A stretch of DNA of 64,000 nucleotides, from assembly GCA_951406725.2 (NCBI GenBank), contig OX597824.1:59210001-59274000 (forward strand). The letters run 5' to 3'. Position 1 is the stretch's first letter. Each line of letters starts with the position of its first letter. The position numbers were made by a program, and so were the translations under genes. This DNA is from Octopus vulgaris (lineage: Eukaryota). Positions 8,860 through 53,877 of the stretch are shown one piece after another. The notes beneath the pieces were generated by a model. The model ran no database searches and was not told the origin of the DNA. It was given only the letters and a program-made list of their open reading frames with translations.

Positions 8860-11400
8860 TCATTCGAACATGTCATATCTACTAGGGCTAATTCTACATA
8901 CCATGCAGTTATCATTGGTACATATGGTATTCTTAAACGGGTAAGTCCTACATAGTTGTGATCTGACGGAGTTACCTGGCTTTTCAACAATTTTAATGTT
9001 GAGTTTGGTCTCCTTCAGAGCTTTTCTAAATCTACGGGCTAGTTCTCCATGGGCTGTGGTCTCTAAAAAACATCACTCCTTGATATTTGTCGGTTTTATA
9101 CCACGTGTTCGCCCTGTTTGCTTTGTCACAAGCTCTTTGTATTCTATTCCATTCTTTGTTTCTATATCTAGGACAGGTACCATTGGTATCATTACGTATA
9201 ATGTTATCTAATTTCTTTCTAGCCCCTCTGTATACACGAACCTTATCTTTCTGATCATATCCAGAGAACTGCATGAGGTGCATGAAGTTCTGTATGTTTT
9301 TTCATTTCATAGGGTTCGCATAGTGGGGACACATTGTTCATTATTCTAACTAGTTCTGCTATTAGTATGTTAATTTTCATGTTGTGTGACAAAGCTGAGT
9401 TCTTGTGAACAACATATTTTGAAGTTATAGGTTTCATGTAATAAGAGTGGAGGAGTTGCACTCTATTGTTCACAGTCCCTAACCAAAGTTCAGTATCAAG
9501 TACAGGGAGTATATTGTTAGGTTTCTTAGTGGGGTAATCTATAGTTACCTTGATACTTTGGTGAATGGAGTTAGCTATTTGCTGGATGCTCTCCATTACG
9601 TTCTTCTCAGTCTCTACATTACCGTCACTAGAGTTGGTTCTAACTATTATATTAATGTCATCTACATATCTACTGTAGAGTAGAAGAGTTGTGGACTGTT
9701 CTGCTAACATTTGTTTAAATTTTCTGTCCCACCAGGTCATGAAGAGGCCAGCCACATCTCCAGCTATACCTACACCAATGGCTGCACCTTGAACCTGTAT
9801 GTATAGTTTTTTATTAAACTTTACTATGTGGTTTTTCAATGTGGTTTTTACGCTGGCCCAAATTGCATATGCAACCATTTCCCTCACCTGATTGTTGTTC
9901 TCAGGGTTTTGGGTGTGTGCGGTCCAGCCACTCCAGCGCTCTGTGGTGCTTTTCTTCACCGCTGAAGTGATGGTGAGTGGTCTTTCCCTCTGCGACCTGG
10001 TGGGGCAGAATTTACTAAGGTCATGGTCATCAAAATAGTTATTGTCATAGCATAGTCTGAGGAGGAGGCCCAGTTCCCTGGTGTTGGCCTTACGGAATTC
10101 CACTTCACTCTCACAGATTGCTTGAATGCATTTCTCCACTGCAAAATCTATGTCTATAGATGGGTAGAGTGAAATTACATCCATACTACCGACTATACAA
10201 CATGTGAGGTTGTTGGTGTGGTTGCAAGTATTGATTTTACTGAGGAGATCTTCCGTACTCATACAGACATCCGGAGACATCTCTATGATAGGTCGCAATA
10301 CTTCTGAGAGGAAGTAGGACAGTCTACAGTTGCTGGAGATGTTCGCTCCGCAAACTGGTCTGGTTGGGGGCCCTGCGACAGTGTTTATGTAGGGTTTTTG
10401 GTCTTTGCGTAACCCGTATAATGTAGGAACATCATTGTTGGATGCCTGGAAATTGTGTGCTGTCCTTTTTGTAGGTTGGAGTATGTTGCACCACATTCCC
10501 ATGTGTGCAATAAGGAGTTTTTCTACTCTTTCATGTTCTTGTGGTGCAACTTCTCTCATGCTACAGATATGTTGTTGCATGGTCTGGATATAGTTCTGTG
10601 GGCTATCTACTGATAGTCTGCCAGACTTGTCTGTGGGGAGGCACACCAATTCTTTGTTCCTAATTCGCTGTTTTAGTTTTTGTAGGCTTTTGTCAACAGA
10701 TGAGCTGAGTTGGTGGGACCCCTCCTCACTGTTTTTTAGTGGATTTGTTGTATTGATCTGTGTCGGAGTCTATTTCTAGCTAAGGAGATCTTTGCTTCTG
10801 TTTCACTGTCAATTTGGGGTGGGATACATACCTTTTTGTTAAAGGGTAAGTCTGTGGGATAGATCCTCGTCATGTCATAAGATTTGTTGTTAGGGCTATA
10901 GAAGACAGAGTGTAGAGTGTTATTATCGTTGTAGTTGTTGTTATAGTTGCCGGTATTGTTGTTGTTGGTGGTGGTAGTGCTTGTGTTGTGCCTATTGTTA
11001 TTGTTATGGGTGACGTTGGTGGTAGTGGTGTGAATGATGTGGTTGTTGTCGTTATCTGTGTGTCGGATGTTGTTGTTATTGTTGCTGTCGTCATCGTTAT
11101 TGTTGTTGTTATTATTATAGTTGTTTCTGTTTCGTACGCTTGTGTTGTTGCTGTTGTTGTTATAGTTATCTGAGTGAGGAATGTTGTGGGTGTCGTTGTT
11201 GTTGTTGTTATTACCCCTATAGTTGTCATCAACACCGCTATTGTTATTGTTGTTGTTTTGGCTACGTATGTTTGTGTTGTTGTTGTTGTTGTTGTTGTAT
11301 TGTCCTAACCTCCATCTTAACTTTAAGAACGTTTTTTTTCAATTTCACACAGACAATCAATTGTCAAGGCTATTGAAAAGGTTGCAAGACGCAACGAAAA
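8860..11400 (-). mobile_element. Penelope-like element remnant (Neptune-like Cys linker, endonuclease truncated)
   Basis: KLRW and AAC-rich N-terminal region, RT ORF, frameshifted thumb (MQFSGY) and KIVEKPG...PF..C..C..C linker. Confidence 0.85.
9255..10649 (-). pseudogene. Penelope-like reverse transcriptase open frame (464 aa, frameshifted near the C-terminus)
   Basis: PTDKSG, LYGLRKD, PPTRPV, SMDVISLYPSI, YIQVQGAAIG, YSRYVDD, LPVLDT, YMKP motifs. Confidence 0.9.
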
Positions 11401-33423: not shown

Positions 33424-33427
<4 letters not shown>

Positions 33428-33945
33428 TAGTTATCGCCAAGCTAACATGGCAGTCCAGTAAAATAGGACGAATGCTGCCGTTGATTATCTCCGAGAGGCC
33501 ATCGCTTCTAGCCAGCTATGTGACACATGAACCTGTGTCCATTATAACCTTCGAACAGAGGAGGTCAGCCGCTTCCCCTTGCTTGTCAGGCCACCACAGT
33601 CTAGTTTTGGGGTATATGCTACTTATCAATGTAGAGCAGCCGAATCGTCTGTTCGAAGGATTATTTATCTAAATTCAATGGAATACATCCTCTGGAATAC
33701 ATCCACTAGTAGATGCCTGATCAGTAAGGGAAAGCGGCTGACCTCCCTGTTCGAAGGTTATAATGGACATAGGTTCGTGAGTCACGTAGCTAGCTAGAGG
33801 CGATGGCCTCTTAGAGCTAATCAACGGCAGCATTCGTCCTATTTTCCTGGACTGCAATGTTAGCTTGGCGATGACTATTAAATATCCAGTACCGCTGCCG
33901 TAGTCTCCTTCAGAGAGACTTAGAAATATTAGTATTTCTATTATT
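33424..33945. mobile_element. Foldback copy of the U3-A8 hammerhead element family
   Basis: Arms about 33424-33590 and about 33710-33882; homologous to the 52593 unit; decayed HHR on the minus strand at about 33594-33634 (TTGATAA core). Confidence 0.8.
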
Positions 33946-39020: not shown

Positions 39021-41350
39021 ACACATGCGCAATTAGTCAGTTGCTTCCTGTTGAGCCAGAGTGGACGTGAGTCAAACAGCTCCGTCCAATTATAGAAAAA
39101 AGACCACAAACAGAGGGTTGTCGAGGTGAGTGATTTTGTTTATTGTGAGTTGGGCACAATTTATTGCGTGCTAATTATTATTTCAGTAAGTTGTGTCCAA
39201 CTCTGAGACAATTTCGCCTGCTCTCGGCGGCTGCTTTGTTTTTGTGTTTATTGGGAAAAAAAAACAGTTGAGGGGCGTATCCTCGGAACCCAATACAGTT
39301 ACTGTTAAAATTACCGTTGGCGGTAGCCAGTGCTGTGTTTGGGTTTGTTGAATTTATTCCCTTGTCAGAGTACTTCGCAAGAAAATTATAAAAATAAGCC
39401 ACTTTTGTATTACCTTTCGGATCCATTTTTGTGGAGGTTGTGTTACAGTTGCGGCGTTCCAGGTTCAACTCAGGTCGGGAGTACCGTAAGGCCAGAAGAT
39501 TTTTGCTGTGTTTTTTCTGTTTATTAACTTTCTTTTGAACTTCATTTAACTCCCCCTTTTGTTTTTTTGTTTATTGCGACTTTCCGTTGATTTCTTCCCT
39601 TCTATTGTGCTTTCTTCTTTTTGTTTTTTCAAAAATCTATCAAATTTTATTTGAACTTTTGAACTTTTTTCTTCTCGCTTTTTAAGTTTAATTTGAATAT
39701 ATTTAAAAAAAAAAAAAAAAAAAAAAAAACATGGCAATGAAAAATGACAAAATTTTGGAATGGGAGATCATACCGCCTAAAAAGTGGTTAAAAGACCGTG
39801 AAGATAGGACGGTGGTGTTGAGAACCTACTCCAAGGCACTCGACACCATCGCCCTATTCGAAAAGACGGCAATTGAAAAGGAGTTGGCAGAGTATTTGCC
39901 AACAATTAAATTCATTTCCAGGGGTGTCAAATATGCAACGGTGTGGTTGCTATTTGACACCCCTGAAGAGGCTTGCAAATTTGCTAGCAAACCCCTGGAG
40001 GGTAAGGAAATTTTATTCCTGCCCACGTACCAAAAAAAGAGACTGACGAAAGCTTGGATTTGCGGGCTGCCACCCGGGATAGAACCCGAGTGGATAGAGG
40101 AGACTATCCGCCGGGGTCTGGGTAGCAGCGAAACTAAGCTCCTTAATGTAAAAGTTCTTCCTGCGGCTGCTTGGGTTGGGTCAAAAGCAATTTTGATCCT
40201 TTGGACCCAATCAGCCAATCTGGTTCTTCCAGATTTTTTGAAAATGGCCGGGTGCAGGTACCCGGTGATGCTTGAGGGTCGCCCCCCTAAGTGTCATCGG
40301 TGCTTGGAGTCCGGCCATATAAAGAAGAACTGTCCCGGGGAACAAAATAGGATCCCGGAACAGCTAAGTGAAACCCCTGTAGAAGAGGGAATGATAACGG
40401 CCGAGGAAGCAGAGGACTCCTCAAACAGAGGCCGAAAGAGGAAGGTGAGCAACAATGGGTGCTCACCAAAGGATACTAGGGATGAGGAGGGAAAGGCGAA
40501 TCTTCCGGCCACGGAGGAGACGCACCCTCCCTCAGTTGAAAAGAAAAAAAAGAAAAAGAGGAAGAGGAAGAGAAACGGGACATTACCGGCTGTCGGTGAC
40601 ATAGCACCGGAATGTCCCGGAACTACGTCGGTTGGGGTTGTGCCACCGACAGGAGAAGAAATACCGTTGGCGGGAACTGTGCCGCCAACGAAAGAATTGA
40701 ATATCCCGCACCCGAACAAAAACGAGGTATTGATCCTCTTCTATAGAGGCGGAGAGATTGAAAAGGTGATAGAAAAGCACCACAAGGGAGCACCTTTAGC
40801 CTTCACACAGGACCCCAAATGGCCTCCGCAGGTAGCTGTGGAGGCCGTGGCGTTCGACGTGACGCTTGGGCTGAAGGAGCTCAATGAGGATTATAGCTTG
40901 GTCCCGGGCGACGCTAACTCGGAACTCGATTACGTTCTGAGGGAGGCGTGGTGGATGGTGGAGGGCGCGGACACAAGTTATTTCGAGGACGAGTCAAATT
41001 GTGATACGACTTGAGGGGCCCCGACCTAGAGCTGGCGCATTCCTAAGGAAAGTATAAGCCAGGTCTGGGAGGAGGGGCTTTGTGTATTGTATTTATATAT
41101 GTAATTATTGAACTATGTTGTTATTAGTAATGGACTGCTAAGTCCAAAAATTGAAAAAATTGTAATACCTCGTTTTGTGTTTGTTTTTAAAAGAACAATG
41201 TTTTAGAGAAACAGAAGTCGGCGGGCGCTTTTTGTCTTCTCCCATCCCCATCATCTTTCTTTCATTATCATTCACTTCATTAATGTCCTCGTCCAGCCCG
41301 CAAAGCTAACTTACTCTATGTACTGCCTTTATGGCAAATGTTATGAAATA
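39021..41350 (+). mobile_element. ORF1-only non-autonomous L1/Tx1-like retroelement with 15-bp TSD
   Basis: aagtagcttgctaac at 39006-39020 and 41351-41365; about 710-bp 5' UTR, single ORF, 3' UTR ending in AATAAA; no RT or endonuclease. Confidence 0.85.
39731..41014 (+). CDS. Gag-like/ORF1 nucleic-acid-binding protein with CCHC zinc knuckle, 427 aa
   Basis: Intact ATG-to-stop ORF; GRPPKCHRCLESGHIKKNCP (CX2CX4HX4C); RRM-like N-terminal half; basic KKKKKKRKRKR stretch. Confidence 0.85.
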   Translation: MAMKNDKILEWEIIPPKKWLKDREDRTVVLRTYSKALDTIALFEKTAIEKELAEYLPTIKFISRGVKYATVWLLFDTPEEACKFASKPLEGKEILFLPTYQKKRLTKAWICGLPPGIEPEWIEETIRRGLGSSETKLLNVKVLPAAAWVGSKAILILWTQSANLVLPDFLKMAGCRYPVMLEGRPPKCHRCLESGHIKKNCPGEQNRIPEQLSETPVEEGMITAEEAEDSSNRGRKRKVSNNGCSPKDTRDEEGKANLPATEETHPPSVEKKKKKKRKRKRNGTLPAVGDIAPECPGTTSVGVVPPTGEEIPLAGTVPPTKELNIPHPNKNEVLILFYRGGEIEKVIEKHHKGAPLAFTQDPKWPPQVAVEAVAFDVTLGLKELNEDYSLVPGDANSELDYVLREAWWMVEGADTSYFEDESNCDTT

Positions 41351-51980: not shown

Positions 51981-52758
51981 AGTAACGATAAATGAAGAAA
52001 ATATTTCCAATTATAATTAAAAAGATTACACTCATAAGGAACGTACATCCAGCCATTTCATCTGCATATATCCATTGCACCCATTCAGAGATATCAACAA
52101 TATAAATCTCAAAGAAATAATTTGCAACGTTCCAGCTTATAGAGATGTGGCTTCGATGACCTTCTAGACAAAACTTCAACAACGAAAGAAGTAAATGTAT
52201 AAACATAAAAAGAAAATTAAGCTCATTTCGGATATTAAGCAAAAACGCCATGCTTGACTAGTAAAAATTGCCCCCTGGCGAGTTAACGCCATCATATACT
52301 TAACCTAAATATCAACTCTGAAATCGTACATTTATGTTTAAAACTAATAATGCTGAAATTTATAGAAATACGCACGCACACACACACACACACGCGCGCA
52401 CTCAAACGTACACAAGCAAATGCACACTCAGATAAAAATACATTTATGCGTATTTGAACCTGTATATTGTATGCTATGTATACACAAACATGTGTGTTCG
52501 TATATGTGTGTGCGCGTATGTGTAAATCATCCATCAATATATATATGTATATATATATACACACACATATACATATATATACATATATATATATAGTTAT
52601 CGCCATACTAATATGGCATTCTTATAAAAATAAGAATAAAGCTGTCCGCTTATTAGCTCCATGAGGCCATCGCTTTAAGTTAGCTATTTGATACACAAAC
52701 TGTATCCATATAACCTTCGAACAAGGGAGGTCAGTCGCTCCACACTACTTGATCGACA

Positions 52759-52800
52759 GCTACAGACGCGTTTCGGGGTATTGCCCCTTTTCAATGTAGC
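52759..52800 (-). ncRNA. Type I hammerhead, U3-A8 core variant
   Basis: GCTACA-TTGAAAA-GGGG caata CCCC-GAAA-CGCG-TC-TGTAGC. Confidence 0.8.
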
Positions 52801-53120
52801 GTAGTCAGACCAGTAGGTGTCGCTTCTGACAATCTCTGTTCGAAGGTTTTATTTACCTAGTTTCAGTGGAATACATCCACTTGTTTTCAATAATAGAAAT
52901 ATTAAAATTACTAAGTCTCTCTAAAAGAGATCACGGCAGCGTTCCTGGAAAATAATAGTTATCGCCATACTAATATGGCATTCTTATAAAAATAAGAATA
53001 AAGCTGTCCGCTTATTAGCTCCATGAGGCCATCGCCTTAAGTTAGCTATTTGATACACAAACTGTATCCATATAATCTTCGAACAAGGGAGGTCAGTCGC
53101 TCCACACTACTTGATCGACA

Positions 53121-53161
53121 GCTACAGACGCGTTTCGGGGTATTGCCCCTTTTCAATGTAG
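53121..53161 (-). ncRNA. Type I hammerhead, U3-A8 core variant (second copy)
   Basis: Same motif 362 bp away; adjacent 10-bp deletion. Confidence 0.78.
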
Positions 53162-53536
53162 ACCAGTAGGTGTCGCTTCTGACAATCTCTGTTCGAAGGT
53201 TTTATTTACCTGTAGCTGTCGATCAAGTAGTGTGGAGCGACTGACCTCCCTTGTTCGAAGGTTATATGGATACAGTTTGTGTATCAAATAGCTAACTTAA
53301 GGCGATGGCCTCATGGAGCTAATAAGCGGACAGCTTTATTCTTATTTTTATAAGAATGCCATATTAGTATGGTGATAACTATTATTTTCCAGGAACGCTG
53401 CCGTGATCTCTTTTAGAGAGACTTAGTAATTTTAATATTTCTATTATTGAAAACAAGTGGATGTATTCCACTGAAACTAGGTAAATAAAACCTTCGAACA
53501 GAGATTGTCAGAAGCGACACCTACTGGTCTGACTAC

Positions 53537-53578
53537 GCTACATTGAAAAGAGGCAATACCCCGAAACGCGTCTGTAGC
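53537..53578 (+). ncRNA. Type I hammerhead, U3-A8 core variant (third copy)
   Basis: GCTACA-TTGAAAA-GAGG caata CCCC-GAAA-CGCG-TC-TGTAGC; predicted cleavage after 53572. Confidence 0.78.
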
Positions 53579-53790
53579 TGTCGATCAAGTAGTGTGGAGC
53601 GACTGACCTCCCTTGTTCGAAGGTTATATGGATACAGTTTGTGTATCAAATAGCTAACTTAAGGCGATGGCCTCATGGAGCTAATAAGCGGACAGCTTTA
53701 TTCTTATTTTTATAAGAATGCCATATTAGTATGGCGATAACTATTATTTTCCAGGAACGCTGCCGTGATCTCTTTTAGAGAGACTTAGTA

Positions 53791-53877
<87 letters not shown>

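Follow-up and report, generated by a model that had tools for sequence, protein, structure and literature searches.

Head-to-head pairs of a 362-bp repeat in the genome of Octopus vulgaris are probably insertions of a young non-LTR retrozyme into (TA)n microsatellites, made by a Penelope-like RT/GIY-YIG enzyme which would prime twice and leave two cDNAs joined head to head. The locus we have studied is one young, ordinary copy of this common 362-base repeat. Its two arms do meet at the predicted cleavage site of a hammerhead motif; in the family such a junction is a minority event.

The focal locus is found in a window of 64,000 nucleotides, rich in microsatellites (contig C11, positions 59210001-59274000, of an assembly of 2.8 Gb with 227 contigs). 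We have numbered the unit q1-q362 after positions 53211-53572, so that q1 is the first base 3' of GTC, the predicted GUC cut. The features of the locus are given in Table 1. The arms meet at 53210/53211, the repeat spacing is 362 and the units are 99-100% identical, in agreement with the head-to-head array and the recent activity described in an earlier note on this DNA. The sequence TGTAGCTGTCG is found at 53211 and 53573 on the plus strand and at 53126 and 52764 on the minus strand, while GAAACGCGTC is found at 53563 (plus) and at 53136 and 52774 (minus). The arms are short, with 1.7 units in the minus arm and 1.6 units in the plus arm, and do not form a long array. Both of them terminate in (TA)n and there is no microsatellite between them. 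They have 2 nt in common (CT), so that the plus arm may start at q362, q1 or q2. Its start thus coincides with the predicted cleavage site within ±1 nt, as had been claimed, and the arm runs through the next predicted site, which was correctly placed 362 nt further on. The stem II mismatch of the plus-arm hammerhead is an A, present in 2 of 211 aligned passes; we considered it as an escape from cleavage, but the locus has several single-copy changes, and the mismatch is more probably another of these. An older relative of the unit, with 77-85% identity, is found in the same window at 33425-33945. It is also head-to-head, with one short and one long end and (TA)n flanks.

Table 1. Features of the focal locus, with positions in the window
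Feature	Positions	Strand	Remarks
Left (TA)n target microsatellite	52537..52595		
Minus arm, 619 nt	52593..53211	-	From q269 (5', at junction) to q172 (3', the short tail-less 'A' end)
Intact type I hammerhead motif	52741..52816	-	Core U3-A8, stem II of four pairs, loop III a palindrome; cut predicted at 52765/52764
Hammerhead motif with 9-nt deletion in distal stem I	53105..53170	-	Predicted cut 53127/53126; first hammerhead of minus arm
Head-to-head junction, q269 / q362-q2, 2-nt overlap	53210..53211		
Plus arm, 584 nt	53211..53794	+	q1 to q222; 3' end is a shortened form of the long tailed 'B' end
q39-48, main hotspot of 5' truncations and junctions in the family	53249..53258	+	3' strand of long stem, self-complementary TTCGAA
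Tail segment between family 3' end sites (q172-175, q234-237)	53382..53447	+	Both sites end CTAT(TAT)
Hammerhead motif crossed by plus arm	53521..53596	+	Predicted cut 53572/53573; stem II has a rare mismatch, 53551
Right (TA)n target microsatellite	53794..53874		

Each unit has one predicted type I hammerhead motif, a U3-A8 variant. Its parts are stem I, the core U3-U-G-A-N-A8-A, a stem II of four pairs with GAAA after it, a minimal stem III whose loop is palindromic, and finally GUC. An Rfam search did not detect a hammerhead either at the gathering score or at E<=5, so that the assignment rests on the motif and on covariation. For the latter we chose 16 copies, taken from both young and older subfamilies, in which 93% of the cells in the stems are paired, and eight of the 19 pairs have compensatory changes with both sides altered, a value which none of 500 shuffles reached. 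Slid controls have 25-53% of paired cells, in a comparison which favours the structure drawn from the window copy. Loop III appears as three different palindromic hexamers and all four bases are seen at position 7. The motif and the compensatory pairs support a retrozyme-like unit with a conserved hammerhead, which had been recognized from the letters of the window. The predicted fold of the 362-nt unit has z = -9.0. A U3-A8 pair can stand in for C3-G8 in the hammerhead core. Partial rescue has been reported for a C3G/G8C swap (PMC11167929); a literature search for natural U3-A8 hammerheads gave nothing relevant. The minimal stem III with its palindromic loop resembles HHR_Amex1 of the axolotl, as described in the available part of PMC7229834, and by this analogy would fit cleavage as a dimer. 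The presence of a motif is no guarantee of activity, since in the available part of a 2026 preprint only one of nine predicted elements self-cleaved (10.64898/2026.07.22.740005). The unit is covered by contigs of four runs, whose RNA nature is a guess; these contigs are uninformative on ends, strand and circles. Several older subfamilies (L066:311-386 on the minus strand, L107, L111, L120, L128 and L186) have kept the hammerhead with compensatory changes and a swapped loop III hexamer.

The size of the family is apparent from 2,489 exact matches to a 21-mer and 1,253 to the post-cleavage 17-mer. Our census contains 147 distinct loci, after removal of the focal locus, duplicates and 25 loci selected with targeted patterns; arms with less than 93% identity or cut by the edge of a locus were also removed. 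The loci come from a positional sample on contig C1, copies with one random variant base, copies with q1-17 or q1-25, and the best BLAST matches. The first two sources form the subset which we call unbiased. A multi-unit reference was used, because a BLAST query starting at q1 creates false starts at this position. There are 279 arms in the 147 loci, and most of them finish in one of two places: 120 have a short A end (q165-181) and 110 a long B end (q228-240), while 49 finish elsewhere. The two fixed sites, q172-175 and q234-237, are 62 nt apart and both finish in CTAT(TAT). With targeted loci included, (TA)n adjoins 202 of 228 such ends: a (TA)3 lies no more than 14 nt away from the end in 104 of 117 A arms and in 98 of 111 B arms. 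Arms longer than 362 nt are frequent (103 of 230), with a maximum of 2,733 nt, about 7.5 units.

Head-to-head arrangement is found in 101 of the 147 loci; the other 46 have a single arm or other arrangements. In 14 of the 101 one end is unclassed. The remaining 87 demonstrate a strict pairing of ends: 84 have one A and one B end, three have two A ends and none has two B ends (P 7e-22). In one locus (L068) the whole inverted insertion has been locally duplicated, with the copies about 1.1 kb apart. The sense strand of a unit dimer has no long frame. A PLE-type ORF (RT + GIY-YIG) joined to the unit was not found in any of the 195 loci scanned, where neighbouring PLE ORFs are set apart by (TA)n. 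Many independent elements accumulate in (TA)n tracts, and a comparison of flanks with one another gave no recognisable shared element body, simple repeats being dominant.

Two young autonomous Penelope families with many open frames, F1 and F2, were compared with the unit. F1 (L276, G000:C1:27839500-27849400) is very young and has a 4,271-bp tandem unit, many copies with 99-100% identity, and a protein of 775 aa with GIY-YIG and an RVT_1 match slightly below the Pfam cut-off. It has two 3' ends 46 nt apart and (TA)n targets. Among 17 complete inverted loci of F1, chosen from the match list, 14 have one end of each type and three have two long ends. F2 (L277, G000:C6:117394500-117404400) has a unit of about 4.48 kb in which only RVT_1 is found in Pfam. 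In contrast to F1 it has essentially a single 3' end (31 of 33) and no inverted pairs in 33 short loci. A strict hammerhead scan of F1 and F2 found none; a relaxed scan found none in F2 and five loose candidate matches in F1. The 362-bp unit has no DNA similarity to either of these two families, nor a shared pLTR. F1 shows that the same architecture occurs without a recognisable ribozyme, a point which concerns the architecture and not the identity of the mobiliser.

The two arms of a locus are closely related to each other. In 101 loci, targeted ones included, the arms agree in 616 of 633 comparisons at polymorphic sites (97%), whereas shuffled partners agree in 59% on average and 69% at most. 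Inside the two main subfamilies the agreement is 50/52 and 123/127 (96-97%), against 58% and 50% after shuffling. Discordant arms are found in eight loci, and three haplotypes account for 60 of 113 loci. Such sharing of alleles might also come from successive master elements, which is possible, or from conversion between arms, which could contribute. Heavy ongoing conversion is argued against by private variants, since 150 of them are found on one arm and only 10 on both.

At 60 of 103 junctions the overlap is 1-4 nt, and longer ones of 6-12 nt recur at self-complementary sites (q9/q40, q279/q42, q44/q44 and q327/q1). Identical junctions recur at unrelated places, which indicates independent joins by microhomology. 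This is the case for q9/q40 (L044, L070, L094 and L165), q279/q42 (L039, L182 and L257) and q1/q102 (L135 and L136); the A and B ends are exchanged in some of these cases. The recurrent self-complementary sites, as well as the alleles common to both arms, would also be explained if a single target-primed cDNA folded back or self-primed, or if an antisense template self-primed as proposed for Penelope in the available part of PMC3846280. Nevertheless we consider this origin of the inverted arm improbable. A copy of the short-ended arm cannot gain an additional tail of 62 nt without a second template, and either arm may be the longer one. Each of the outer ends is a sense 3' end, and they lie at different fixed sites, both of which adjoin (TA)n; the majority of junction pairs join positions which are not complementary.

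According to the earlier note, cDNA copied to the 5' end of a self-cleaved RNA fixes the inversion junction. For this reading we have the focal junction itself, and in the census q362-q4 is the start of 10 of the 230 classed arms, where the mean stop rate predicts 2.9, a 3.5-fold excess (P 8e-4). The bin at the cleavage site was fixed by that note, while the other bins were picked after viewing the data. The main hotspot is q39-48, with 31 of 230 starts against 6.8 expected, and further peaks are found at q258-279 and q323-327. Of the 93 arms in the unbiased subset, 2 start at the cleavage site (P 0.28, not significant) and 15 at q39-48 (P 2e-7). The cleavage site is crossed in 220 of 230 passes, a read-through of about 96%. 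We also searched the whole genome with start patterns in which the upstream bases are forbidden, so that about two matches are expected per position. The q1 pattern gave 10 matches, all of them real starts (one is a 37-nt internal piece). Enrichment is similar at q7, a control placed 6 nt downstream, which gave nine matches, namely seven long arms, a 17-nt match to a CAT repeat and a 22-nt piece. The upstream control q354 gave six matches, of which three belong to an older subfamily, two are internal changes and one is a 30-nt piece, so that at most two are matches of the young subfamily. One of the q1 starts, that of L026, was formed through a 6-nt microhomology overlap in stem I.

As a rule for inversion junctions cleavage is refuted, and the reading that it sets the junction in the family is very improbable in view of the read-through, the q39-48 hotspot, the q7 control and F1, which inverts and in which a hammerhead was not found. 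The scatter of breakpoints which the earlier note had named as evidence against itself is largely present among the family copies. What stands of its proposal is the modest excess of starts at the cut. Stops just 3' of the cut are 3-5 times commoner than just 5' of it, with a rate at q1 of about 1.4% per pass. Such a pattern is what a small pool of cut templates would give, although the structure of stem I or microhomology could yield it as well, as the peaks at q7 and q323-327 show. Since only about 4% of the other arms begin at the cleavage site, the contribution of the ribozyme is minor at most. For the focal locus the 3-5-fold excess, together with the 2-nt ambiguity of the start, leads us to favour somewhat a plus-arm cDNA which ran off the self-cleaved 5' end. 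The best single case of run-off is L133, in which both arms begin at q1/q2 with about 44 nt of other sequence between them.

No contig bridging the focal junction was found among the 32 pieces listed (there are 4,007 further pieces), and the assembly of this locus is therefore backed indirectly. That gap, and the tendency of (TA)n tracts to gather independent elements, might suggest an assembly artefact, a rearrangement of satellite DNA or two separate insertions in one microsatellite, but all of this is scarcely credible, because 101 of 147 dispersed loci are also head-to-head, with non-random pairing of ends and matched alleles, because no microsatellite separates the focal arms, and because the older subfamily copy of the window has the same plan.

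We thus return to two primings by a Penelope-like enzyme. The enzyme would nick both strands of a (TA)n target; one target 3' end would prime at the short site (A), the second at the long site (B), either both on one RNA or on RNAs with a common source. The template would be a circular or an uncut multimer RNA, which would explain that copying usually passes the ribozyme. Each cDNA would stop at a variable place, more often at the edges of helices (q39-48, q258-279 and q323-327), and in a few percent of the passes at the cleavage site. The truncated cDNA ends would then anneal head to head by microhomology. Run-off from cut RNA is a minority path and not the source of the inversion. Against twin priming we must count that target-site duplications are unreadable inside (TA)n and that 46 of the 147 loci have no inverted partner. 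A more specific version is a tentative possibility: one circular retrozyme RNA would serve a dimer of the Penelope enzyme as template for the priming of both strands, with one start invariably at the short site and one at the long site. The enzyme would roll past the ribozyme, and a few percent of the templates would be linear RNAs opened by the ribozyme, from which come the arms that begin at the cleavage site. If this single-molecule twin priming is true, the inversion and the one-sided tail of Penelope are its direct footprint. LINE-1 elements also undergo twin priming: both target strands prime cDNA and the products are joined head to head by microhomology, with segments which are adjacent and non-overlapping and a second site which is variable. 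The octopus family differs in that neither of its sites varies and in that the sequences copied into its two arms overlap.

The unit has many features of the metazoan non-LTR retrozymes, as these are presented in the available parts of PMC7229834 and 10.64898/2026.07.22.740005. They are non-coding tandems of 150-450 bp, without LTRs and low in GC (<50%), with one type I hammerhead per unit and strong self-pairing; they are dispersed in high copy number alongside autonomous PLEs. The octopus unit differs from those described there by its U3-A8 core instead of C3-G8. It also differs by its head-to-head insertions and two fixed 3' ends; the word "inverted" is absent from the available part of PMC7229834. 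A further difference is that no pLTR homology between the unit and F1 or F2 was found, and the octopus unit is known from sequence alone.

The insertions also resemble those of EN+ Penelope-like elements, as described in the available parts of PMC3846280 and 10.1101/2021.04.23.441226: their tandems are partial, a 5'-truncated copy lies alongside in inverted orientation, only one of the ends has a tail, the targets are (TA)n and the 5' junctions have microhomology. The octopus family is different from them in having no ORF and a tail of about 62 nt instead of 30-40, and in that the whole unit is non-coding and bears a predicted ribozyme. From its sequence features the family is likely a non-LTR retrozyme with the known Penelope architecture of inverted copy and one-sided tail, produced by two primings at a double-strand cut.

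A purified Poseidon element enzyme, PAc, has been studied in vitro: it cuts and extends both strands and uses two internal start sites, and cleavage by the ribozyme is not required (PMC11167929). The two internal initiation sites downstream of the hammerhead, which match the tail, the AT-rich target, the cutting and extension of both strands and the use of uncut RNA as main substrate agree with the model proposed here. Initiation by PAc is not based on homology, unlike the octopus family, in which both end sites share TAT with the (TA)n target. The two strands did not differ in the start site used by PAc, so that the strict pairing of A and B ends is not explained by that work (PMC11167929).

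The qualitative architecture had been described previously. The inverted ends and one-sided tail of Penelope, as well as the mobilisation of animal retrozymes, are stated as open in the available parts of the literature cited. The octopus family supplies counts for them, namely A ends paired with B ends in 84/87 loci, agreement of alleles between the arms of 97% and a ribozyme site crossed in about 96% of the passes, and it supports mobilisation by Penelope from the anatomy of insertions instead of co-occurrence. The available main text of a paper on octopus repeats does not mention hammerhead, retrozyme or ribozyme, and its supplements or repeat library may contain the family (PMC13282606). 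No title or abstract beginning on retrozymes in octopus or other cephalopods, or with inverted Penelope insertions in microsatellites, describes it, in a search with most subscription journals outside its range.

Two other regions of the window contain open frames. On the minus strand, at 9258-10769, there is an open stretch of 504 aa with a weak similarity to RT (Pfam RVT_1 E 0.0065) and to an F2-type fragment (BLASTP E 3e-6); it is probably another Penelope-like element. On the plus strand, at 39707-41011, a frame of 435 aa has a weak match to a zinc knuckle (E 0.0075) and is gag-like or LINE ORF1-like.
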